DNA of 64,000 bases, taken from the NCBI GenBank assembly GCA_014816185.1, contig GCA_014816185.1_4095.1. One strand, 5' to 3'. The notes under the pieces are model-generated. The model saw only the letters and a program-made list of their open reading frames with translations. It searched no databases and was not told where the DNA came from. A program made the translations under genes and the position numbers. How positions within the stretch are numbered: the stretch's first letter is position 1; every line of letters starts with the position of its first letter. Source of the stretch: a phage. This document shows positions 3,433 to 60,893 of this stretch, piece after piece.

Positions 3433-5172
3433 ATGAGTTGGAAACGACATATGACAGTGGGAAGGTCTAAACTATCGACCATCCCGAATCAGTCCAGTAA
3501 TAGCAATAAATCAACAGGAACGAAAACAAATTTCGCTTCCTATCTTCCTGTTGTATATAATGGATTGGCAAACCGTACTGAGCGTTATAGTCAGTATGAG
3601 CAAATGGACCAAGATCCTGAAATTAGAACTGCATTGAATATAATTGCTGACTTTTGTACCCAAAGTACTGAAGATTTTGGTTTACCATATAAAATCAAAT
3701 ATAAAGATGATATTGGTGATACTGAAGTAACTACTATTGAAGATCGTTTAGATGCATGGACTGAACAAAATGATTTTAAAACACGAATGTATGAAATTGT
3801 GCGTGGTCTTCTGAAATATGGTGATCAATTTTTCATTCGAGATCCAGAAACATTCGATTGGTATTGGGTAAGTCCCAAAAATGTTGAGCAAGTATTTGTT
3901 AACGAAGCCACTGGTAAAACACCAGTAATTTATTATATACGTGACGTATCATTAAATTTGAAAGATAAAGTTTTTAGTAACCTTCAAGTAGGATTTGATA
4001 AAACCGCTTATCCAGGAGCTATTCCGACAACAATGGGTGGTGGTGGTTCAGTAGCTGCGGGTGGTGCATCTGGTTTTACAAGTCAAGGAAATACTGCTGA
4101 TCCATTCAGTACTAACGGTCAATTAGACGTTATTCCTGTTGGTGCAGAACACGTAATTCATCTAACGCTAAATACAGGACAAGATGGGGTATGGCCTTTT
4201 GGTACTAGTATACTTGAGGACGTATTTAAAGTCTATAAGCAAAAAGAACTTCTGGAAGATAGTATCATAATTTATCGTGTACAACGTGCACCTGAGCGTC
4301 GTGTATTTAAAATTGATGTTGGTGATATGCAAGCACATCAAGCGATGGCTTATGTTGAAAGATTTAAAAATGAAATCCACCAGCGTAGAATACCTTCAAA
4401 CAAAGGTGGAAGTACTTCATTAATGGATGCAGCATATAATCCATTAAGCATTTTAGAAGACTACTTTTTCCCACAAACTTCTGAAGGTCGTGGTTCAGAT
4501 GTTCAAACATTACCAGGCGGTGATAACTTAGGACAAATTGATGACTTACGTTATTTCAATAATAAATTGATTCGTGGTCTTCAAATACCAGCTTCTTATC
4601 TACCACAAGGTCCAGATGATGGTGGTGTTTCATTATTTGGTGATGGTGCTACACAAGCTATGGCAAGTGAATTGCGATTCAATAATCAATGTATGCGTTA
4701 TCAACGTTTAGTTGCAAAACATTTTGATGCTGAATTCAAAAGATTTATGGTTAAAAATGGATATAACATTAGTACTTCATCTTTTGAAGTTATTATGAAT
4801 CCACCTATTAACTTAGCTTCTTATCGTAAAGCTGAACTAGATGCTAAACTAATTAATACATATCTTCCTCTTAATGACTTGCCTTATATGGCGAAACAAA
4901 CAATTCTTGAAAAAATGGGCTTTTCTAAAGCTGATATTGTTAAGAATGAACAAATGTGGTTACAAGAGAATCCACAAGATGGTTCCCAACCTTCTGGTGG
5001 TGAAGAAGATTCCGCTGGATTACAGTCTGTTGGTATTGATGCTCCAAATGATCCTGGAATGGATCTTGGTATTGATGGAGAAGGTAATTTGGAAAGTGCT
5101 GATGCCGAATACCAAGAGCAACAGAGTGGAAGTGGTGGTTTCAACCCTAATAATTTAGGCAATTCTTTTTAA
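3433..5172 (+). CDS. gp20: portal vertex protein (T4 gp20-like)
   Basis: 579 aa; segment IIYRVQRAPERRVFKIDVGDM ... DVQTLPGGDN ... RYFNNKLIRGLQIPASYLPQ aligns with remembered T4 gp20 ([22 protein letters not shown] ... VDTLPGADN ... RVPLSRIPQ). Confidence 0.9.
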   Translation: MSWKRHMTVGRSKLSTIPNQSSNSNKSTGTKTNFASYLPVVYNGLANRTERYSQYEQMDQDPEIRTALNIIADFCTQSTEDFGLPYKIKYKDDIGDTEVTTIEDRLDAWTEQNDFKTRMYEIVRGLLKYGDQFFIRDPETFDWYWVSPKNVEQVFVNEATGKTPVIYYIRDVSLNLKDKVFSNLQVGFDKTAYPGAIPTTMGGGGSVAAGGASGFTSQGNTADPFSTNGQLDVIPVGAEHVIHLTLNTGQDGVWPFGTSILEDVFKVYKQKELLEDSIIIYRVQRAPERRVFKIDVGDMQAHQAMAYVERFKNEIHQRRIPSNKGGSTSLMDAAYNPLSILEDYFFPQTSEGRGSDVQTLPGGDNLGQIDDLRYFNNKLIRGLQIPASYLPQGPDDGGVSLFGDGATQAMASELRFNNQCMRYQRLVAKHFDAEFKRFMVKNGYNISTSSFEVIMNPPINLASYRKAELDAKLINTYLPLNDLPYMAKQTILEKMGFSKADIVKNEQMWLQENPQDGSQPSGGEEDSAGLQSVGIDAPNDPGMDLGIDGEGNLESADAEYQEQQSGSGGFNPNNLGNSF

Positions 5173-5193
5173 ACATAAATAACAGTGTATAAG

Positions 5194-5220
5194 AATGAGG
5201 GTTTATTTTTACCCTCATTT
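5194..5220 (+). terminator. terminator-like hairpin after portal gene
   Basis: Stem AATGAGGGT/ACCCTCATT with 8-nt loop; only a short T run follows. Confidence 0.35.
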
Positions 5221-5245
5221 ATAATGCATATTTCAAGGAGATCAA

Positions 5246-5473
5246 ATGTTAAAGGACATCTTTGAATCTAGCAGTGATTCAATGTACGACCCTGAAGATG
5301 ATCAGAACGTATATAAAATTACTGATTCCAGAAAACCGAAACTAACATTACAAGTATTAAACAACTTAAGAAAGTACCGTGAATTTAAAGCACATGAAGA
5401 ACAACGCCGCAAAAATGTGGTTGCAGTTGTTTATGCCGCTGCACCAACTGGTGACGGTTCTGGGTTAATGTAA
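5246..5473 (+). CDS. small prohead core protein candidate (gp67/gp68 position)
   Basis: 75-aa ORF between portal and protease genes with RBS AAGGAGA; assignment by position only. Confidence 0.45.
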   Translation: MLKDIFESSSDSMYDPEDDQNVYKITDSRKPKLTLQVLNNLRKYREFKAHEEQRRKNVVAVVYAAAPTGDGSGLM

Positions 5474-5574
5474 ATCAAAAATCGCACTTTTTAAAGCTTT
5501 TAAAAAAGGCGATTTTATTCAGTACTAAATAATATCATACTTTATACGAATGTAATATATCTATGGAGGATATA

Positions 5575-6423
5575 ATGGCGAATTTAAAACTACTACAAGA
5601 AGCAATTGCGGCGTTTGCAAATGGCGAACAAGATATTGCTGATAAAAAAATGCGTAAGTATTTCGTTGAGCAAGCTCAAGAAATTAACAAACAACTAGAA
5701 GAAAGCATGGAAGATGAAGACGACGATGAAGATTGTGAAGTCGAAGTTAAAGTCAAAGATGAAGAAAAGCTTGACGAAGATTTTGATGTACAACCAGACG
5801 AAGGTCTAAATGCTGAAATCGAATACACCCTTGGTGAAGAAGATGAAAGTGCAGAAGAAGAAGTTGAATTCTCTGCTGATGCAGATGGTGACGGTGAAGA
5901 CGATGTTGACGTTGAAGTGAAAGCTGATGCTGATGTTCCTTCCGAAGACCAATGGGAATCAATCCAAGATGCTTTCCGTGGCCTACAACAAATGTTTGAT
6001 GAAATCGGTGACGGTGAAGTTGATCTAGATTCTGAAGAAGAAGTAGAAGATAGCGAAGAAGAAGTTGGCGTTGACGGTGACGACGAATTTGCTGATGTTG
6101 AATTCGGTGATGAAAAATTCGGTGAATCCTTCAAACTAGAAAAAGTTGCTCCAGTTGATAAGAAAGAAAAAGCTGGCACTCATTCCAAATCTCCAGTAGC
6201 ACCAGAAGCTAAATCTCCAGTAGCAGGAGCAGAGCCAGTTAAATTCGCTAAGAAAACTGACCAAGCACCACTACTAGACCTAGATGATAAATCTGTTCTA
6301 CCAAAAGATAGTCTAGATCTTGGTAAAAATGCTCGCGGTGAAATGAAAGATGTTAAAGCACCAAAAACTACTGCATCTAATTCTAAATCACCACTAAGCA
6401 AAGCACAACCTAAACTAAAATAA
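5575..6423 (+). CDS. highly acidic prohead core/scaffold-like protein
   Basis: ORF 5563-6423; likely start ATG 5575 after GGAGG; long Asp/Glu-rich tracts; sits between portal and prohead protease; upstream ACTAAATA late-promoter-like motif. Confidence 0.6.
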   Translation: MANLKLLQEAIAAFANGEQDIADKKMRKYFVEQAQEINKQLEESMEDEDDDEDCEVEVKVKDEEKLDEDFDVQPDEGLNAEIEYTLGEEDESAEEEVEFSADADGDGEDDVDVEVKADADVPSEDQWESIQDAFRGLQQMFDEIGDGEVDLDSEEEVEDSEEEVGVDGDDEFADVEFGDEKFGESFKLEKVAPVDKKEKAGTHSKSPVAPEAKSPVAGAEPVKFAKKTDQAPLLDLDDKSVLPKDSLDLGKNARGEMKDVKAPKTTASNSKSPLSKAQPKLK

Positions 6424-6443
6424 ATATCTGAAAGGAGATCATT

Positions 6444-7067
6444 ATGAGTAGTATGATTCGTGAATGGTCTTCATTCAATGATTCTAAAGTTGTTTTGGAA
6501 CATCGTGATAATGGATTTGGTGGGCGTGACTGCTATCTTCGTGGTATTGCTATTCAAGCCGACCAACGAAATTTGAACGAGAGAATTTACCCTTTATCTG
6601 AAATTACAAGGGCAGTAAATAACATGAACCAGCGTTTAGCTAAAGGTGAAAGCATTCTTGTTGAATGTGACCATCCAGAAACACTAACTATTAACCTAGA
6701 CCGAGTAGCAGCAATGATTACTAAGGTTTGGATGGAAGGTGCTAATGGTATGGCAGAAATCAAACTACTTGATACTGCACATGGTCAAAATATCCGTAAA
6801 ATGCTAGAGGCTGGTGTAAAACTTGGTGTAAGTTCTCGCGGTTCCGGTAACGTTGATTATAATGGAATAGTTTCTGATTTTGAAATTATCACTATTGATA
6901 TTGTTGCTCAACCTAGTGCTCCAGAAGCATACCCAACAGCGGTATTTGAATCTCTGATGAGTAAGTACGGATCACCTTGTAATAGTTCTAAAAAAATCAC
7001 TGAATCTAAAAAAGTAAATAATTTAGATTCTGAAATATACGATTTTTTCAAGAAATTAAAAGGTTAA
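6444..7067 (+). CDS. gp21: prohead core scaffold protein and protease (T4 gp21-like)
   Basis: 207 aa; RNERIYP, GVSSRGSG and IVAQPSAPEAYPT match remembered T4 gp21 (KRLYP, GVSSRGLG, GPSAPDAWVT). Confidence 0.9.
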   Translation: MSSMIREWSSFNDSKVVLEHRDNGFGGRDCYLRGIAIQADQRNLNERIYPLSEITRAVNNMNQRLAKGESILVECDHPETLTINLDRVAAMITKVWMEGANGMAEIKLLDTAHGQNIRKMLEAGVKLGVSSRGSGNVDYNGIVSDFEIITIDIVAQPSAPEAYPTAVFESLMSKYGSPCNSSKKITESKKVNNLDSEIYDFFKKLKG

Positions 7068-7078
7068 CATTTTAAAAA

Positions 7079-7086
7079 TATAAATA
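7079..7086 (+). promoter_or_regulatory. T4-type late promoter TATAAATA
   Basis: Exact TATAAATA 48 nt upstream of the gp22-like start; followed by a 9-bp hairpin. Confidence 0.45.
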
Positions 7087-7133
7087 TCTGTATGTTGAAG
7101 TACAGATATTTCAGTACTTAAAGGAGAGAACGA

Positions 7134-8249
7134 ATGTCTAAATTAGAAAAGCTTCTAAAAGAATCATCTCTTTCTGATGAGGCAAAACAGCTAATTCAGG
7201 AAGCATGGAATGAAGAAAAGAATACACTAGCCGCAGAGATGCGTGAAGAAATGAAAGGCCGTTATCAGCAAGATTTGGCTGAACTAACCGAAGGTTTGAA
7301 CACTATGGTTACTCAAGTCATTGCTGAAGAAATGGGTGCTGTATATGAAGAGAAAAAACGTCTCGTTGAAGATCGTGTAACTCTACGTAAAACACTAAGC
7401 AATTTCTCTGCGTTTTCAAACTCTGTTTTGGCTGAAGAAGTTAAACAAATGCGTAAAGAACGTAAGCATCTTCATGAATGCATGGGTAAATTCGTTAATT
7501 TTTCTAACGGTATCCTAGCAGAAGAGCTAAAAGAATTCCACACTGAAAAACGCCAACTAGTAGAAACTCGCGTTAAACTACTTGCTGAAGGTTCACGTCA
7601 AATTGCTGAAGCTCGTAATAACTTCATCAAACGTACATCTGAAAGTGCTGCTAAATATATTGCAGAAACCACTCAGAAGAATCTATATGCGTTGAAACAA
7701 GATCTAGTGGAAGCAAAACAAAATATGTTTGGTCGTAAAATCTTTGAAGCATTTGCTCAAGAGTTTAATGTCAAACAATTTAATGAAAATTCATTGCTAC
7801 GTTCCCTAACTGAATCAATTAAATCTAAAGAAGATGAAATTGCTCAAGTTAAGCAAGAACTACATGAAACTGCTAATGCCGTTAAAGCTGCTAAAACCAA
7901 ACTACGTATTATGGAAGATGCACAAGCACGTAATGCGATTATGTCTGAACTAGTAAAACCACTAACTGCACAGCAAAAACAAATTATGGAATCCCTTCTA
8001 GCTACTTCACCTACTGAAAAGCTTAAAGAAGATTTCAGCAAGTACCATAAGTCAGTACTTAACGGTACTAAAGTAAATGAATCTGCTACCACTCGTCAAG
8101 CAGTTCAGTCTTCCGCTAAGAAAACTCTTGCAGAAGGTAAAGTAATCACTGGCAACCGTCAGGCTATTGTTGAAAGCGAAGAAATGACCGCTGACGATAT
8201 GGCATTCCTAAAAGAACTCGATGTTCTTTCAGGTATCAATAAAAAATAA
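7134..8249 (+). CDS. gp22: prohead scaffold protein (gp22-like, coiled-coil)
   Basis: 371 aa, Glu/Lys/Ala-rich heptad-like sequence between protease and major capsid genes; RBS AAAGGAGAG. Confidence 0.7.
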   Translation: MSKLEKLLKESSLSDEAKQLIQEAWNEEKNTLAAEMREEMKGRYQQDLAELTEGLNTMVTQVIAEEMGAVYEEKKRLVEDRVTLRKTLSNFSAFSNSVLAEEVKQMRKERKHLHECMGKFVNFSNGILAEELKEFHTEKRQLVETRVKLLAEGSRQIAEARNNFIKRTSESAAKYIAETTQKNLYALKQDLVEAKQNMFGRKIFEAFAQEFNVKQFNENSLLRSLTESIKSKEDEIAQVKQELHETANAVKAAKTKLRIMEDAQARNAIMSELVKPLTAQQKQIMESLLATSPTEKLKEDFSKYHKSVLNGTKVNESATTRQAVQSSAKKTLAEGKVITGNRQAIVESEEMTADDMAFLKELDVLSGINKK

Positions 8250-8287
8250 ACATTTTAAAGCATTTTAATAATCAAATTTTTCAGTTC

Positions 8288-8295
8288 TATAAATA
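8288..8295 (+). promoter_or_regulatory. T4-type late promoter TATAAATA upstream of major capsid gene
   Basis: Exact TATAAATA 46 nt upstream of ATG 8341; part of an 18-nt block shared with 5526-5541. Confidence 0.5.
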
Positions 8296-8340
8296 ATATC
8301 ATACTGAAAAACGAATATAACATCTTTAAGGAGATATATA

Positions 8341-9516
8341 ATGTCACAACTACTAAATGAATCCAAATGGGTAGCAGTAAAAGAGAAACTAGTTGAAGGT
8401 CTACAGGGTACTCGTAAGTCTGTAATGGAAACTGTTCTTGATAACCATCGTAAAGTTATGCTAACTGAATCCGCAACTTCTGGTGCAACTACCGCTGGTA
8501 ACATCGCTACTCTAAACAAAGTGATTCTACCAATTATGCGTCGTGTAATGCCAACCGTTATTGCTAACGAAATCATCGGTGTTCAACCAATGACTGGTCC
8601 AGTTGGTCAGATCCACACCCTACGTGTGCAATATGCTGATAACGCACCTGGTGTTATCGCTGGTGAAGAAATGCTTTCTCCATACAAAATCGCTAAATCC
8701 TACTCTGGTGATCTAAATGCGGATAATAGCAACCCACAAGCTGCTCCTACTAGCCAACTAGAAGGTACTATGGGTCGTCGCGTTAACATCCGTATTCTAC
8801 GTGAAACTGTTGAAGCGAAATCTCGTCGTCTATCTGCACGTTGGACTGTTGAATCTGCACAAGATGCTCAATCCCAACATGGTGTTGACGTTGAAGCAGA
8901 ACTAATGGCTGCAATCGCTCAAGAAGTTACCGTAGAAATCGACCAAGAGCTACTAAGCCGTCTACGTGCACTACCTGGTGCTGCTGCTGTAACTTATGAC
9001 CAATCTAAAGTTACTGGTGTTGCAACCTTCGTTGGTGATGAGCACGCTGCTCTAGCAACTCTAATTAACCGTCAAGCAAACGAAGTTGCTCGTCGTACTA
9101 AGCGTGGTGCTGCAAACTGGGCTGTTGTTTCCCCAACTGCACTAACCATTCTACAATCTGCTACTACTTCTAGCTTTGCACGTACCACTGAAGGTACTTT
9201 CGAAGCACCAACTAACGTTAAGTTTGTAGGTACTCTAAACAGCACTATGCGTATTTTTGTTGATACGTATGCTTCAGATGCCGAGGACATTTTGATTGGT
9301 TATAAAGGTAATGCTGAAACTGATGCTGGTGTGTTCTATTGCCCATACATCCCACTAATGGCTTCCGGTACTGTAATGGACCCTAACACTGGGGAACTCG
9401 TTACAACTTTCTTAACCAGATACGGGTATGTTCAGTTGACCGATAGCACCAGTTCACTAGGTAACGCTGCTGACTACTACAGCAAAATCGCTATCAAAAA
9501 CGTTACTTTCATGTAA
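8341..9516 (+). CDS. gp23: major capsid protein (T4 gp23 family)
   Basis: 391 aa; ILPIMRRVMPTVIANEIIGVQPMTGPVGQIHTLRVQY and VEAKSRRLSARWTVESAQDAQSQHGVDVEAEL align with remembered T4 gp23; strong RBS AAGGAGA; strong terminator downstream. Confidence 0.92.
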   Translation: MSQLLNESKWVAVKEKLVEGLQGTRKSVMETVLDNHRKVMLTESATSGATTAGNIATLNKVILPIMRRVMPTVIANEIIGVQPMTGPVGQIHTLRVQYADNAPGVIAGEEMLSPYKIAKSYSGDLNADNSNPQAAPTSQLEGTMGRRVNIRILRETVEAKSRRLSARWTVESAQDAQSQHGVDVEAELMAAIAQEVTVEIDQELLSRLRALPGAAAVTYDQSKVTGVATFVGDEHAALATLINRQANEVARRTKRGAANWAVVSPTALTILQSATTSSFARTTEGTFEAPTNVKFVGTLNSTMRIFVDTYASDAEDILIGYKGNAETDAGVFYCPYIPLMASGTVMDPNTGELVTTFLTRYGYVQLTDSTSSLGNAADYYSKIAIKNVTFM

Positions 9517-9560
9517 TTGTAATCGATTTAAAAGATTTAATCAAGAAATTCAAAACAATA

Positions 9561-9590
9561 GGGACTCTTCGGAGTCCCTTTTCTTTTTTT
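9561..9590 (+). terminator. Rho-independent terminator after capsid gene
   Basis: GGGACTC-ttcg-GAGTCCC hairpin followed by TTTTCTTTTTTT. Confidence 0.8.
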
Positions 9591-9634
9591 ATAATCATCT
9601 AAATACACATAGGTGACATTAAGGAGATCAAATT

Positions 9635-19912: not shown

Positions 19913-20035
19913 GAAAATCTCCTTGTCAAATTTTGTGCAGGTATATCCTGCTTAAAGTTATTTATCAAAAAATATCACTAGCATTTAAATTTACTGAGAT
20001 ATTTAATGAATTTCTATGATATTATTTATCAAATC

Positions 20036-33384: not shown

Positions 33385-34000
33385 ACATTATAGAAAAGCC
33401 CGAACTGATATTGACATTGACTTCAAGGATAGTAAAAGCGTAATCGCTAAACTTCCATGTGTGCGAAGTACTGAAAAAATTACGGAGGATGGTTTAATCC
33501 CCCATAATAGTGGTGTTCATTTTGATAATATACCTATTGACCCAATCACTGGATTGGCAAGTATACAATATAAAGAAGCTGAAAGGTTAGGGTATCAAAA
33601 AGTTGATATTCTTTCACAGTCAGCTTACATGTATGTTCGTGATAGAGAGCATTTAAAAGAACTAATGAATCAGGAACCAAATTGGGATCTATTGTTAGAA
33701 CCCGAAATTGTAGAACATCTATCGCAAATTAAAAAACATGTAACTTTATTAAATGTATGGAAGCCTAAATCTATAGACGAACTAGCAATGTTTATTGCAA
33801 TGATTCGCCCAGGAAAAAGGCAGTGCCAAAGTATGAACACATGGGACGAAGTTAAAGCCACCATATGGGATTATAGTACTATCGGCACTGACCAAGCAGG
33901 AAATAAATTACGATATTTCAAAAAGCCACATGCTTACGCATATAGCTTAATGATTGTTGTACAACTAAATGCTTTAGTTGAACATCTTACTTCTTCTTAA
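33362..34000 (+). CDS. hypothetical protein with DnaE (Pol III alpha)-like motifs
   Basis: 212 aa; colinear motifs TDIDIDF, QKVDILSQ, AMIRPGK, YFKKPHAYAYSL resembling DnaE palm/finger motifs (PDFDVDF, KFDFLGL, LFRPGP, GFNKSHSAAYAL) at compressed spacing. Confidence 0.5.
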   Translation: MQDSTDSKHYRKARTDIDIDFKDSKSVIAKLPCVRSTEKITEDGLIPHNSGVHFDNIPIDPITGLASIQYKEAERLGYQKVDILSQSAYMYVRDREHLKELMNQEPNWDLLLEPEIVEHLSQIKKHVTLLNVWKPKSIDELAMFIAMIRPGKRQCQSMNTWDEVKATIWDYSTIGTDQAGNKLRYFKKPHAYAYSLMIVVQLNALVEHLTSS

Positions 34001-34340
34001 GAGCCACATTACGACGCTTGATGCGTTTCTGTGGTAAATTGCTTAAAGAAACTACTGGACCACATACGAAATTCACCGACGGTGTATCGAATCTCTGTGT
34101 GTACGGTTCAAATTTCTCCATCTCTTCTTGAAAGAATAGACAAACTGGAATGGTTCTATTACTTTGCCACCACCAATCGTGTGCTATACCTAACAATTCG
34201 TCTTGCATTGAATCATCCATATCATCGAAACAGTAAAGAGTTGTATACTGTTTGCTTTTGATTTTGATGATACCAACAAACGTTTTACCATCATACTGGA
34301 TTACAGTAATGAATGGTGGAATAGTGTTATATTGATTCAT
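33987..34340 (-). CDS. hypothetical protein (117 aa, minus strand)
   Basis: Complete ORF between + strand genes; basic C-terminus; weak RBS. Confidence 0.4.
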   Translation of the reverse strand: MNQYNTIPPFITVIQYDGKTFVGIIKIKSKQYTTLYCFDDMDDSMQDELLGIAHDWWWQSNRTIPVCLFFQEEMEKFEPYTQRFDTPSVNFVCGPVVSLSNLPQKRIKRRNVALKKK

Positions 34341-34397
34341 ATTAGTTCCATAAATATTAGTATAAATTTATACCTATTATTTATGGAAGGAAAAACT

Positions 34398-35375
34398 ATG
34401 GCTCATCACGGCGTGTTTATGTACCCTTATAATCAGGAAGTATCATTGGGCAATTTTAATATGCCATATAGCAATGAAAAACTAACTATATATAGAGGGG
34501 CAAATAATAATTTATCTTTTACTGTTCACAACGCTGATGGAAAATATACTTTATTGAAAGATAATGAATATCTTACATTTATGATTTTTGATGCACGAAA
34601 TAATACTAAACTATTTGATGTTGTATTAGAAAAACAAGAACCCAGTTGGTTATCAGAAAGTGGACAAGCAAGACAAACATTAGGAAATAAAAAGAAAGTA
34701 TATTATGGATGTATTGTTCCAGCAGGAGTTATTCAAGATACCAGTCCTGGTTCAAAATATAGATGGAGCATTACTAAAGTAACAATGGATGGTTCACTTA
34801 TAGAACCAACACAATATCTATACACAGGGATGAACTTTGAGGCATCAGCAGAGCTAATAATTTCAGACCAAGCAGCACCTGTATTTGTCCCCAGTACTGA
34901 AATATCAGTTAATAAAAATCCAGCATGGACAACTATAAAGCGTTTATATCATGAACCAATTGGAAATGGTATGATTGGTGAATATGATATTCTCGCATCA
35001 ACTCCACTACCAGCACAAATGCAGTTTGGATTAGTAGATGGATTAAGTAGTATTGCAATTTATTTTGACAAATTTATTGGTAGAATACAGCTACAAGGGT
35101 GCTTGTGTAACAACGTACCTAATGATAATGAAAACTATAAATGGTTTATTATTAAATTAGATGGAAAGGATTATATTGAAAATGGAATTGATTCAGAAGG
35201 TTTTCCAAAAGAACTTGACGGAATACAAGCATTTAATTTTAAAGGAAATTATATGTGGTTACGTTTGGTGGTTGCTATTCATCCCAAAATTGTTCCAGTA
35301 CCATATGACTATGCTGCTGTCCGAAAAGTGTATGACCCTTTCCTAACAGTACCTAAAATTTTGATACGTAGATGA
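34398..35375 (+). CDS. hypothetical protein, possibly structural (about 326 aa)
   Basis: ORF 34332-35375, start ATG 34398 after GGAAGGA; CATAAATA/TATAAATT late-promoter-like motifs upstream. Confidence 0.5.
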   Translation: MAHHGVFMYPYNQEVSLGNFNMPYSNEKLTIYRGANNNLSFTVHNADGKYTLLKDNEYLTFMIFDARNNTKLFDVVLEKQEPSWLSESGQARQTLGNKKKVYYGCIVPAGVIQDTSPGSKYRWSITKVTMDGSLIEPTQYLYTGMNFEASAELIISDQAAPVFVPSTEISVNKNPAWTTIKRLYHEPIGNGMIGEYDILASTPLPAQMQFGLVDGLSSIAIYFDKFIGRIQLQGCLCNNVPNDNENYKWFIIKLDGKDYIENGIDSEGFPKELDGIQAFNFKGNYMWLRLVVAIHPKIVPVPYDYAAVRKVYDPFLTVPKILIRR

Positions 35376-55860: not shown

Positions 55861-55875
55861 AATATAGACTTAAAA

Positions 55876-58037
<2,162 letters not shown>

Positions 58038-58928: not shown

Positions 58929-60893
58929 ATGGCTAAGAAAGAAAGTGCTGTTCTACAGGAACATGATGTTCAACGACTAAATGATTATCAACATGCTCGT
59001 TTGCGTACCGAGATGTATCTTGGTTCTCGTTCAGTGCATGAAAGTCAAGTACTGATTTTTGGTGAATCAGGTTATGAGGTTAAGAACGTAGAATGGGTTC
59101 CTGCAATTCTTACTGCTACACGTGAAATTATTGATAACAGCTTAGATGAATTTAAAAAAGCTGGAACCAAAGAACCTGTTTTGAAAGTTGATTTCAATGA
59201 AGAAGAACTATCATTTGAAATTAGTGACAATGGACGTGGTATTCCAATTGATTATGTTCCAGAGTATCAGAAAAACTTGTGTACTATGGTAATGACTGAA
59301 ACAAAAACAGGCCGTAACTTTGACGATTCAAAACGTGATGAAACGATTGGTCAGAATGGTTTAGGTGGTTCTGTTGCAATGATTGTCAGTTCTAAGGCAG
59401 AGTTAGAAATTCATCGCCAAGGTCGTCCGTATAAAACACAAAGTAGTAATGATGGTTATGATGGGTTTTATAAGTTCAATCAGAAGTTTGAGGAAGGAAC
59501 TATTATGTTCCCTGAGCTTCATGTACACGAACCTACTATTAGAAAGGTACAAACCGATAAAACTGGAACAACAATTCGTTTTACTTTGAGTAAAGAAGTT
59601 TTTCCAAACAGAAAACTACCAACCGAATTACTTTATAGTATTCTTAAAGAAATGGCAGCAGCTAACCCAACTTATAAAATCTTTCTGAACGGGAAACGTA
59701 TTGCTATTAAAGGAAACACTGAAAAAGCACTCTTCAATGCATCTAAATTAATGCAGTTGAATGTTAAAGATGATTCATTCAATTTTAACAGTACTTTTTA
59801 TATTGTTCCTAATGCAGTAGCTGGCATGAACACGAATTTCCATATGCATGGGTTGGTTAACAATGCTCCTGCATTTGATGGTGGTACACATCTTGATACA
59901 TTCAAGAAATTCTTCTCACTCGGTGTAGGAACTGCACTAGAGAAAGAATCTAAGAAACGTAGGATGAAACCTAATCGTTCTGATATTGAAGAAGGTTTGT
60001 TGATTTATAATGTCACAACTATGAAAGCACCTTCATTCAACTCACAGATTAAATCTAAACTAACTAATGAAAACGTAATCCGTCCAATTCAACAAGCTAT
60101 GAATACCGAATGGTTTGATGAATTAGTTAAGAAGAACAAAGAATGGGTTGATGAAATCTTCGAACGTTGTGCTGCCCGTACAAATAAGAAAGATGCAGAA
60201 GAAGATCGTCGCCTAGCAAAGAAACTTCTAAAAGGTAAAGTTGCAAAACTATTGGATAGTACTGGAACAGACCGTTCACAGTGTATTCTATTGATTGCAG
60301 AAGGTGACTCTGCAATTTCCAACATGGCTAGTGCTCGTATACCAAGTATTCATGGTATTCTACCATTGCGTGGGAAAATTATGAACGTCAGTGGTACTGA
60401 GAAAACCAAAGAATTAATGGATTCAATGGCTTTACATGATATAATGGCTAGTATCAACTTAGTTCCAGGTGTTAAAGCAGAACGTTCTGAACTAAACTAT
60501 GGCAAGCTTTACATCTGTGCTGATGAAGATGAAGATGGGAAGAACATTGGTGCTCTAGTGTGTAACTTCTTATTTAAATTCTGGCCTGAATTGTTTCAAG
60601 ACCCAGAAAATCCATTTGTGTATGTATTCAAAACACCATTTATCATTCTTGAGAAAGGTAAAGAATCAAAATACTACTATGGTCATAATGTGCATGAATA
60701 TAACCCAGATGATTGGAAAGGCTGGAAAGCAACGCGTGCAAAAGGTTTAGGAACTTTAGAAAAAGCAAACTTCCGTGATGCATTCACTAATAGTGTTGCA
60801 GTAGCGATCACCGATGATGGCCGTCTTGGTGAAACTCTTGATTTGATTTTCAACAAGAAACGTGCAGATGATCGTAAGAACTGGATGGAATAA
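58929..60893 (+). CDS. gp39: DNA topoisomerase II large subunit (GyrB-like; T4 gp39 and gp60 equivalents fused)
   Basis: 654 aa; ATPase-region IDNSLDE and TOPRIM LLIAEGDSA; size matches uninterrupted gp39+gp60. Confidence 0.88.
   Translation: MAKKESAVLQEHDVQRLNDYQHARLRTEMYLGSRSVHESQVLIFGESGYEVKNVEWVPAILTATREIIDNSLDEFKKAGTKEPVLKVDFNEEELSFEISDNGRGIPIDYVPEYQKNLCTMVMTETKTGRNFDDSKRDETIGQNGLGGSVAMIVSSKAELEIHRQGRPYKTQSSNDGYDGFYKFNQKFEEGTIMFPELHVHEPTIRKVQTDKTGTTIRFTLSKEVFPNRKLPTELLYSILKEMAAANPTYKIFLNGKRIAIKGNTEKALFNASKLMQLNVKDDSFNFNSTFYIVPNAVAGMNTNFHMHGLVNNAPAFDGGTHLDTFKKFFSLGVGTALEKESKKRRMKPNRSDIEEGLLIYNVTTMKAPSFNSQIKSKLTNENVIRPIQQAMNTEWFDELVKKNKEWVDEIFERCAARTNKKDAEEDRRLAKKLLKGKVAKLLDSTGTDRSQCILLIAEGDSAISNMASARIPSIHGILPLRGKIMNVSGTEKTKELMDSMALHDIMASINLVPGVKAERSELNYGKLYICADEDEDGKNIGALVCNFLFKFWPELFQDPENPFVYVFKTPFIILEKGKESKYYYGHNVHEYNPDDWKGWKATRAKGLGTLEKANFRDAFTNSVAVAITDDGRLGETLDLIFNKKRADDRKNWME

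Follow-up and report, generated by a model that had tools for sequence, protein, structure and literature searches.

Putative T4-type late promoters with a shared initiation region upstream of two head genes of a 121Q-like jumbo phage

Two identical 16-nt blocks, TAAATAATATCATACT, located upstream of two head genes of an Asteriusvirus jumbo phage are best explained as the cores and initiation regions of T4-type late promoters, which would be read by the host RNA polymerase with a phage-encoded gp55-like sigma factor. We assign a probability of about 0.7 to this explanation, which includes their membership in a conserved subclass of such promoters and the homogenisation of the cassettes that contain them. 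The DNA analysed, a stretch of 64 kb (hereafter the window), shares 99.5% identity with 121Q/PBECO4. An earlier note on this DNA had placed the 16-mer at 5526-5541 (R1) and 8290-8305 (R2); both are exact matches on the + strand, and no further exact copy is present in the window. The promoter pair is a real and fairly ordinary signal, whose interest lies mainly in the unusual likeness of its copies.

The late-promoter motif and a candidate late sigma factor

The late promoter of phage T4, TATAAATA, is read by gp55 together with gp33 and the gp45 clamp. A related motif, ATAAATA followed by AT-rich DNA, was predicted as the late promoter before structural genes in the phages CBB and GAP32 (PMC5259590). 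The earlier note had raised the prospect that the motif might recur frequently and at random within coding sequence. Instead, over 350 kb of a near-identical genome TAAATA occurs at 2.56/kb in non-coding as against 0.43/kb in coding DNA, and TATAAATA at 0.34/kb as against 0.01/kb. The non-coding enrichment is 6-fold for TAAATA, 16-fold for ATAAATA and about 30-fold for TATAAATA, and many structural genes have such a site 20-70 nt upstream. A logo of 59 late-promoter sites contained at most 0.2 bit of information past the core and nothing informative upstream of it, except for an A at -1 as counted from the core, with no sign of a -35 element. A general extended late-promoter consensus was rejected on this ground. 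The extended element proposed in the earlier note thus survives in part: bases past the core are conserved at both R1 and R2, but this is not a general property of the late promoters. The extension is the mark of a small subclass before structural genes.

The candidate for the factor that would read these sites is the product of 121Q gene 591, located some 5 kb upstream of the window and annotated as a sigma factor for late transcription (279 aa). Profile searches recovered phrog_12791 (2.7e-154) and phrog_234, labelled 'late sigma transcription factor' (8.4e-18); no Pfam match and no phmmer match to any solved structure was recovered, and it is through the PHROG profiles alone that the protein is linked to gp55. 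The CBB authors found no gp33 or gp45 homologues (PMC5259590), and hence the mechanism of activation may differ from that of T4. Promoter analysis is absent from the Asteriusvirus genome papers examined, and the papers on PA5oct, Sharanji, fEgEco12 and phAPEC6 contain neither late-promoter nor 5'-end data for the R1 and R2 sites.

Architecture of the two promoter cassettes

The T4 late box spans -13 to -6, is followed by an AT-rich segment and is not accompanied by a -35 element (PMC2988020); given this span, a C-A dinucleotide falls at -1/+1 in both copies. R1 comprises TAAATA at 5526-5531 (-11 to -6), ATAT at 5532-5535, C(-1) at 5536, the start A(+1) predicted from the T4 geometry at 5537, and TACT at 5538-5541. 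Its box (5524-5531, ACTAAATA) matches TATAAATA at six of eight positions, with AC instead of TA at -13/-12. R2 is the second copy of the 16-mer preceded by TA (8288-8305, an exact match on the + strand), and comprises a perfect TATAAATA at 8288-8295, ATAT at 8296-8299, C(-1) at 8300 and a similarly predicted start A(+1) at 8301. The 8290 copy was earlier said to extend a late promoter, and it indeed completes the perfect box; more generally, the reading of both copies as late-promoter sites before head genes is supported. The block from -5 to +5 is ATATCATACT in both, with ATAT at -5 to -2, and 43 of the 59 candidate late-promoter sites have a purine at the predicted start position.

Each promoter is embedded in a larger cassette. 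The R1 cassette (5477-5577, + strand) begins with an intrinsic terminator hairpin (5478-5516; -12.1 kcal/mol, z -3.8) that follows a 75-aa gene and is itself followed by UUUUAUU; it continues with the late promoter, a 38-nt leader, a GGAGG Shine-Dalgarno sequence (5565-5569) and the ATG at 5575 of an acidic 31-kDa virion protein (121Q gp600). The start of this gene is most likely 5575 rather than the in-frame ATG at 5563, because it agrees with the 121Q annotation and with a conserved GGAGG-N5-ATG arrangement. The protein is as acidic as the earlier description had it (pI 4.06, 31% Asp+Glu) and is present in virions. The R2 cassette (8242-8343, + strand) comprises the stop of the scaffold gene, an AT-rich spacer, the late promoter and a 40-nt leader that is unstructured (folding z +0.7), with GGAG at 8330-8333 and the ATG of the major capsid protein at 8341. 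The scaffold gene has its own late promoter, a perfect TATAAATA at 7079-7086 (+ strand) that lacks the extension of the 16-mer; its orthologues retain both this promoter and the hairpin described below.

Alignment of the R1 and R2 cassettes yields 80 identities over 106 columns (about 100 nt, 75%), with a local score of 70, as against 41 for the best unrelated pair among 36 upstream regions. Shuffles of the two regions gave a mean of 19 (sd 3.1) and a maximum of 36 in 2000 trials, placing the real score about 16 sd above them. The leaders of both contain ACGAAT, ATCT and the Shine-Dalgarno context. The cassette has only two copies in the genome, by both blastn and direct count, and these flank core head genes. 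The 16-mer identity is the best-preserved part of a paralogous cassette of about 100 nt.

The arrangement suggests that the host RNA polymerase with the gp55-like sigma would read both promoters. R1 would drive the genes for the acidic virion/core protein and the prohead protease, with read-through extending to the scaffold gene, and R2 would act as an extra promoter of the capsid gene's own. At each, TAAATA would serve as the recognition core at -11 to -6, ATAT would melt, initiation would occur at C(-1)A(+1), and TACT would be the first RNA made, giving an unstructured leader of 38-40 nt with a strong Shine-Dalgarno sequence. We infer both the dependence on the late sigma and the strength of the promoters from these features.

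Significance of the shared block

The full-genome search for the 16-mer that the earlier note had called for was carried out as a direct count on the 350 kb assembled from the unannotated, near-identical genome of ECO103 4-12-1 (a 98.9%-identical phage), where the exact 16-mer occurs at the same two sites only. Searching phage genomes by blastn with the two 101-nt cassettes recovers relatives and is blind to the bare 16-mer. Two copies with two mismatches occur in the same 350 kb, one of them upstream of virion-protein genes. The near copy in the window, TAAATAATATCATAGA (20013-20028, - strand), agrees at 14 of 16 positions, or over 15 bases in a row when the preceding A is included, and is found 116 nt upstream of a pair of paralogous genes for virion proteins (19912-19313 and 19298-18609). 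Their products (20.92 and 24.30 kDa) match gp210 and gp211 of phAPEC6, which had about 70% mass-spectrometry coverage (phAPEC6 paper). This coverage is at most an indirect hint of the tie to high expression that the earlier note had suggested. A scan of IMG/VR recovered the exact 16-mer in 115 stretches, with one match each among the 80 listed and none of those listed being one of the capsid-gene relatives; in so large a database a query of 16 nt is too short for the scan to be informative.

The mere repetition of a 16-mer is unremarkable in this window: six different 16-mers are repeated as against 3.9 expected from third-order Markov simulations, at least one being repeated in 186 of 200 simulations of the window, and matches to the present 16-mer with up to three mismatches are only mildly enriched (9 versus 4.1 expected). 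These figures are what would be expected if AT-rich intergenic regions with a late core merely happened to share ten further bases. However, given the promoter context, the sharing is significant: for the 32 TAAATA sites that precede genes, the probability that any pair agrees in all ten post-core bases is about 0.01, and the next best pairs are alike in eight of ten. Further, the 13-mer TAAATAATATCAT occurs four times in the 350-kb genome as against 0.22 expected (analytic Markov expectation), and all four sites are non-coding, upstream of ORFs and on the correct strand. The pair is judged to be real because of the head genes downstream, the footprint that is invariant across genera (see below) and the similarity of the cassettes over about 100 nt. 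With the score of that alignment far above its shuffles and the same bases invariant in the orthologues of both sites, coincidence is very improbable.

Conservation and probable homogenisation of the cassettes

Orthologous promoter sites, including those of CBB and GAP32, were recovered in the sequences of relatives. Across the 11 orthologous sequences of R1 the invariant columns are TAAATA, CATA and the Shine-Dalgarno sequence, and across the 11 of R2 they are ATAAATAA and ATA. In at least five genera, TAAATAA-N3-CATAC emerges as the footprint that is invariant at either orthologous position, with the bases flanking CATA (A, T and C) nearly invariant over the same span. The conservation beyond the promoter core that the earlier note had suspected is borne out by the CATA, which is invariant at both positions in at least five genera.

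The likeness of R1 to R2 is itself lineage-specific, with scores of 70-80 in the 121Q clade versus 25-39 in other genera. R1 of the 121Q clade scores 40-71 against other R1s, which score 83-154 among themselves, and R2 of this clade stands near its orthologues in the nearer genera (93-106). On the strength of these scores, the two cassettes were probably homogenised in the 121Q lineage by short-patch gene conversion with R2 as the donor and R1 as the recipient, both the conversion and its direction being read from the similarity values. Parallel selection may be an alternative, since the R1-R2 tract is not identical along its whole length. The lineage-specific ATAT within the exact match is more simply explained by homogenisation than by function. 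Hence, the match would run ten bases past the core because the sites belong to a conserved subclass, TAAATAA-N3-CATAC, that was then homogenised in the 121Q lineage. The R2 cassette was found only in relatives with a capsid protein at least 72% identical, and more distant ones have a spacer of 10-34 nt before the capsid gene, with no promoter. Only in the branch of the enterobacterial and Vibrio phages would the capsid gene appear to have gained a promoter cassette of its own, with the exchange with R1 coming later.

Alternative explanations and the hairpin at the capsid promoter

The presence of TATAAT-like hexamers within the block raises the question of whether it is instead a host sigma-70 promoter, with TAATAT or CATACT as the -10 hexamer. 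This was rejected, as no + strand site at R1 or R2 passes even a lenient -35/-10 scan; additionally, the early-type promoters of the phage differ (TGTGCTATAAT) and the downstream genes code for virion proteins, making this reading scarcely credible. A different proposal would be that A-N3-CATAC and the A-rich stretch are targeted by a dedicated factor rather than the polymerase, thereby coordinating the amounts of head proteins. Such a factor might be a DNA-binding regulator positioned over the start site, or a protein or RNA recognising the shared 5' end of the mRNAs (AUACU...), and whatever reads the conserved CATAC could just as well be a molecule different from RNA polymerase. The confinement of the extension to few promoters and the sequences shared by the leaders are consistent with this, as is the greater likeness, within each lineage, of the two promoters to each other than to their distant orthologues: in a Vibrio phage they are TAAATAgAGTTATATAAA and TAAATAaAGTTATATAAA, alike in 13 of 15 post-core bases, as against 4-5 of 10 in comparison with the window. 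However, common descent with conversion explains the likeness within a genome equally well, initiation-region sequence is generally known to alter promoter opening and escape unaided, the leaders are devoid of conserved structure and no candidate was identified. A dedicated factor is consequently considered rather unlikely.

The remaining proposals concern structure. The R2 core is enclosed by a 9-bp inverted repeat, with the 5' arm TTTTTCAGT at 8277-8285 and the 3' arm ACTGAAAAA at 8303-8311 (both + strand), the latter beginning two bases past the predicted start and overlapping the 16-mer by its final three bases. This hairpin (-6.7 kcal/mol, z -3.3) was equalled by none of 200 shuffles. Across the seven R2 sequences that are in register, 92% of the cells of the arms are paired and two pairs have changed on both sides; the counts refer to these seven of the 11, the other four being out of register in the MAFFT alignment due to shorter loops and having the same arms as the window. 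The covariation was exceeded in just one of 500 shuffles and at none of the slid registers. The arm variants are TTTTCTGT/ACAGAAAA in the GAP32 group, TTTGT/ACAAA in L139 and CTTTTTCAGT/ATTGAAAAAG in RaK2, with the compensatory changes CAGT/ACTG, CTGT/ACAG and TTGT/ACAA and additionally a G.U pair in RaK2. Stems enclosing the core are also longer over the 32 late sites (mean 5.84) than in shuffled flanks (5.06 +/- 0.18), and distant relatives contain GGCTG-TAAATA-N7-10-CAGCC upstream of a gp600-like gene. At the scaffold promoter a 12-bp hairpin (7082-7093/7100-7111; -14.4 kcal/mol, z -2.7) contains the promoter core in its 5' arm.

These observations could suggest that the block at the capsid gene matters as structure, with the core in a hairpin loop and the ACT of the 16-mer opening the 3' arm, and that the hairpin acts either in read-through RNA, in processing, stability or as a pause signal, or in DNA, by aiding promoter opening. 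Yet R1 carries the same 16-mer with no significant enclosing hairpin (z -0.09), and the hairpin was accordingly rejected as the cause of the shared block, which structure leaves unexplained. Moreover, the seven sequences contain just two to three independent compensatory events, and the T-run half and the A-run half of the arms could each be a feature in its own right. The 3' arm ends 19 nt upstream of the Shine-Dalgarno sequence at R2 (8311 versus 8330-8333) and 12 nt upstream at the scaffold gene; stopping short of it, the arm is not expected to mask translation. Structure as the significance of the block is hence an improbable reading. A composite version, tentative and still on the unlikely side, is that the internal head-operon promoters of the Rak2-like phages are both embedded in structure and share a concerted start-site identity that would be read by a lineage-specific factor to set the stoichiometry of the head proteins. 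TAAATA would be held in the loop of a hairpin preserved by compensatory change, and this hairpin would control how a minimal gp55-like sigma opens the promoter when the DNA is supercoiled or replicating; alternatively, it would set the fate of read-through RNA through 5'-end protection, processing or pausing.

Implications and comparison with known systems

For annotation, the late-promoter reading locates the main pair of head-gene promoters in the 121Q/PBECO4 jumbo coliphages, with predicted starts at A5537 and A8301, and one gene start is corrected to 5575. The short published late consensus would under-describe a small subclass in which a block at the start site is conserved, and anyone engineering phages with strong late expression cassettes would turn to this subclass first. 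If the cassettes were homogenised as appears, the exchange between R1 and R2 is a small, clear example of viral regulatory DNA evolving in concert. Of all the features, only the hairpin at the capsid promoter might open a way to new biology.

The above-described features are reminiscent of several previously characterized systems. One parallel is with the CBB/GAP32 prediction, made in the same phage group, which has the same motif, structural-gene position and AT-rich downstream region (PMC5259590). That prediction is a 7-nt consensus, and the available portion of its report makes no mention of a start-site block, paralogy of the head cassettes or an inverted repeat at the capsid promoter. Another parallel is offered by the PeSLs of T4-type phages, which combine an early sigma-70 promoter with a stem-loop and are dispersed in many copies alongside variable genes (PMC2839356, PMC4122927). 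R1 similarly combines a terminator stem-loop with a promoter, is repeated in the genome and has signs of recombination, but its promoter is of the late type, and its two copies flank conserved core head genes. The hairpins recall the T4 genes e, soc, 49 and I-TevI, whose late promoters are embedded in inhibitory RNA hairpins (PMC3014915): R2 lies in a hairpin loop and the scaffold promoter in a 5' arm, and, as in T4, transcripts initiated at the promoter would lack the 5' arm whereas read-through RNA would carry the whole hairpin. The T4 hairpins tie up the Shine-Dalgarno sequence or AUG in their 3' arm, whereas the 3' arms at R2 and the scaffold gene leave both uncovered. As in the T4 late promoters themselves, an A/T box lies about one helical turn before the start and is followed by AT-rich DNA without a -35 element, the sites precede virion genes, and 121Q has, by profile match, a candidate gp55-like sigma. 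Differing from T4, the conserved core is shorter, (A)TAAATA, with AC at -13/-12 in R1; the two head promoters retain the additional initiation block A-N3-CATAC; and the candidate sigma is larger (279 aa), with the relative CBB having no gp33 or gp45 homologue reported (PMC5259590). In the final reckoning, R1 and R2 are best regarded as further members of the known late-promoter type.

Two late promoters with a common block in the head-gene region

The window comes from a jumbo coliphage (genus Asteriusvirus) whose head region is 99.5-99.7% identical to those of 121Q, PBECO4 and UB. The gene order, taken from the 121Q annotation, is portal (3433-5172), a 75-aa protein (5246-5473), virion structural protein gp600 (5575-6423), prohead protease (6444-7067), scaffold (7134-8249) and major capsid protein (8341-9516). 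The 16-mer TAAATAATATCATACT is found on the plus strand at 5526-5541, before gp600 (R1), and at 8290-8305, before the capsid gene (R2), where it completes a perfect TATAAATA (8288-8295). There is no further copy in the window, and 350 kb assembled from an unannotated genome 98.9% identical to the window's phage has the exact 16-mer at the same two sites only. The gp600 protein is very acidic (pI 4.06, 31% Asp+Glu, 31.12 kDa) and its mass matches phAPEC6 gp228c, a protein detected in virions; its gene carries, at 5700-6100, imperfect GA-rich repeats (families D1, D2, D4 and D7) coding for Asp/Glu runs. The leader of the 75-aa gene (5176-5245) contains a hairpin, AATGAGGG...CCCTCATT, at about 5194-5219, which in the orthologues is replaced by differently sequenced hairpins at the same location. 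The 1.1-kb endonuclease gene found 3' of the capsid gene in 121Q (gene 604) is absent from the window (window 9517-9634; collected sequence L001, 7518-8784). EJP2, WPEC3, RaK2 and PA5oct have other genes here, that of PA5oct coding for a Hef-like homing endonuclease, which suggests a hot spot for insertions immediately 3' of the capsid gene.

As a bare repeat the 16-mer pair is not beyond chance, as six different 16-mers are repeated in the window versus 3.9 under a 3rd-order Markov model, but in its context it is. For the 32 gene-upstream TAAATA sites in 114 kb, a match of any pair at all 10 post-core bases has a probability of about 0.01, and all other pairs agree at no more than 8 of the 10. 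The complete upstream regions of R1 and R2, running from the stop codon of the previous gene up to the ATG, share 80 identities in 106 aligned columns and have a local score of 70, versus 41 for the best unrelated pair among 36 upstream regions; 2000 shuffles gave a mean of 19.0 (sd 3.1, maximum 36). Four copies of the 13-mer TAAATAATATCAT are present where 0.22 would be expected, and all of them lie in non-coding DNA 5' of an ORF and on its coding strand. Frequent occurrence in coding DNA, a concern raised in the earlier note, is not seen: TAAATA is 6-fold, ATAAATA 16-fold and TATAAATA about 30-fold denser in non-coding DNA. A second exact 16-mer repeat, TATAATGTCACAACTA, at the capsid gene start (8337-8352) and inside a coding region (60006-60021), is most likely a chance repeat of the kind expected in AT-rich sequence.

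Promoter core, initiation region and late sigma factor

In the window and the neighbouring 50 kb of 121Q, many structural genes are preceded by (A)TAAATA at a distance of 20-70 nt. The late promoter predicted for the related phages CBB and GAP32 is ATAAATA with A/T-rich downstream sequence, and was compared to the T4 late promoter (PMC5259590). The 121Q gene 591, annotated as a sigma factor for late transcription, is located outside the window, some 5 kb upstream. It hits the late-sigma profiles phrog_12791 (2.7e-154) and phrog_234 (8.4e-18) of PHROG, with no match in Pfam and no direct match to any solved structure. No sigma-70-type promoter was predicted on the plus strand at the R1 and R2 sites. 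The finding is real, and R1 and R2 are most likely two late promoters whose conserved part reaches through the predicted start site; the kind of promoter is already known, being of the T4 type and earlier predicted for the same phage group. We infer the roles of the two sites beyond this promoter identity.

In T4 the late box spans -13 to -6, the AT-rich segment downstream melts and a -35 element is absent (PMC2988020). Applying this geometry places TAAATA at -11 to -6 (R1 5526-5531, R2 8290-8295), ATAT at -5 to -2 (5532-5535, 8296-8299), C at -1 (5536, 8300), the predicted start A at +1 (5537, 8301) and TACT at +2 to +5 (5538-5541, 8302-8305). Transcription would start at A5537 and A8301; the predicted +1 is a purine in 43/59 candidate sites genome-wide. 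Measured from these starts, the leaders are 38 nt (R1) and 40 nt (R2) long; neither has predicted structure (z 0.06 and +0.72, respectively), and they end in GGAGG-N5-ATG and GGAG-N7-ATG.

Elsewhere, two divergent TAAATA cores (34351 plus, 34383 minus) overlap within a near-palindromic region (34340-34390) in the 42-nt spacer between genes 33987-34340 (minus) and 34383-35375 (plus), each core lying within the leader of the opposite gene. A repeated extended -10 type motif, TGTGCTATAAT, with similar upstream sequence at about 20055, 25362, 35392 and 48255, is clearly distinct from the late sites and probably represents this phage's promoters of the early or host-sigma class.

Conservation of the extension

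Orthologous head regions were gathered from annotated phages and IMG/VR contigs. In the R1 orthologues (n=11) the invariant columns are TAAATA, CATA, ATC, GGAG and the ATG context, with the A and T following the core and the C following CATA nearly invariant; those of R2 (n=11) are ATAAATAA, ATA and AAAA. Because of these invariant columns in both sets, TAAATAA-N3-CATAC is a phylogenetic footprint of the R1 and R2 positions; it is present in Asteriusvirus, the Munch/7t3/Kae01 group, EJP2, Hallingskeid, Mimasvirus (GAP32, CBB, XbC2 and Kaldavass) and Eneladusvirus. The proposal of the earlier note that two head genes share a conserved late-promoter element is broadly right, with conservation running through the predicted start site. 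Across 59 late sites, no position beyond the core carries more than 0.2 bit of information. The post-core extension marks a small subclass and is no general late-promoter trait. A third member, TAAATAATATCATAGA (20028-20013, minus strand), lies before a pair of paralogous genes whose virion proteins have masses of 20.92 and 24.30 kDa, equal to those of phAPEC6 gp210 and gp211; the peptide coverage of gp210 and gp211 (about 70%) is comparable to that of the capsid protein. These phAPEC6-matched proteins are the one, indirect, basis for tying the block to abundant products. A conserved initiation block confined to a few structural-gene promoters is of modest novelty.

Origin and homogenisation of the cassettes

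Almost every relative examined has R1, with its TAAATA box, before the gp600-like gene. R2 is limited to phages with a capsid protein of 72% identity or more; PA5oct and about 50 IMG/VR lineages have a scaffold-capsid spacer of just 10-34 nt that lacks a promoter. R2 keeps a TTTTAAAGC motif resembling the terminator-hairpin loop of R1, and this retained motif fits an origin of R2 by early duplication of the R1 cassette, the intergenic block holding the promoter.

The family-wide footprint accounts for 12/16 positions of the 16-mer. The other four, ATAT, read ATGA, ATCA or AGGA in R1 and ATAA or AAAG in R2 of other genera. R1 and R2 score 70-80 against each other in the 121Q clade and 25-39 in other genera; 121Q-clade R1 scores 40-71 against other R1s, which score 83-154 among themselves, and 121Q-clade R2 scores 93-106 against R2 of the nearer genera. 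These scores point to homogenisation of R1 and R2. R1 of 121Q-like phages shows R2-typical characters, a TTCAGT ahead of its core and an ACGAAT within its leader, and that of WPEC3 has the entire AAATTTTTCAGT. The simplest reading of these sequences is short-patch conversion of R1 by R2, which would have covered about -20 to +25 within a cassette that is otherwise of R1 type and has a terminator hairpin and GGAGGATATAATG of its own. Parallel selection is a tenable alternative. In the Vibrio phage, too, the two promoters are alike (13/15 post-core bases) yet unlike those of the window. Paralogous head cassettes, probably homogenised, are likewise modestly novel.

Hairpins at late promoters

Two inverted arms (TTTTTCAGT, 8277-8285; ACTGAAAAA, 8303-8311) enclose the R2 core within their loop; as RNA, this hairpin folds at -6.7 kcal/mol (z -3.3; equaled by 0/200 shuffles). 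Compensatory arms are seen in Mimasvirus and Eneladusvirus (TTTTCTGT/ACAGAAAA), in the collected sequence L139 (TTTGT/ACAAA) and in RaK2 (CTTTTTCAGT/ATTGAAAAAG, one G.U pair). In the pair count for the arms, pairing holds in 92% of cells, and both sides are altered in two pairs; the covariation score was matched in 1/500 shuffles, with only 2-3 independent events behind it, and no slid register of the arms had a pair altered on both sides. This conserved hairpin surrounding the capsid promoter is also of modest novelty. R1, with the same 16-mer, has no significant enclosing hairpin (z -0.09), which rules out such a hairpin as the cause of the common 16-mer; structure therefore does not account for the block.

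Over 32 late sites the stems enclosing the core are somewhat longer than expected (mean 5.84 versus 5.06 +/- 0.18). A 12-bp hairpin (7082-7093/7100-7111; -14.4 kcal/mol, z -2.7), kept in orthologues, has the scaffold late promoter TATAAATA (7079-7086) in its 5' arm; as the predicted start, 7092, is inside the arm, this hairpin would be possible only in read-through RNA. At the R1 position, upstream of the gp600-like gene, seven distant relatives (IMG/VR sequences L143, L161, L162, L175, L182, L192 and L195) conserve GGCTG-TAAATA-N7-10-CAGCC-TTGCC, in which GC-rich inverted arms of 5 bp hold the late box in their loop, and other lineages have GTAGT/ACTAC or TTGTA/TACAA arms. A terminator-like 15-bp hairpin (AAAAACTCCAAGATT/AATCTTGGAGTTTTT) at 55872-55931, with a TAAATA box in its 25-nt loop, lies directly 5' of the ATG at 55932.

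In the T4 genes e, soc, 49 and I-TevI the late promoter lies within a hairpin found in longer transcripts only (PMC3014915). The architecture of R2 is similar in placing a late promoter inside a hairpin, but differs in that its 3' arm leaves the ribosome-binding site uncovered.
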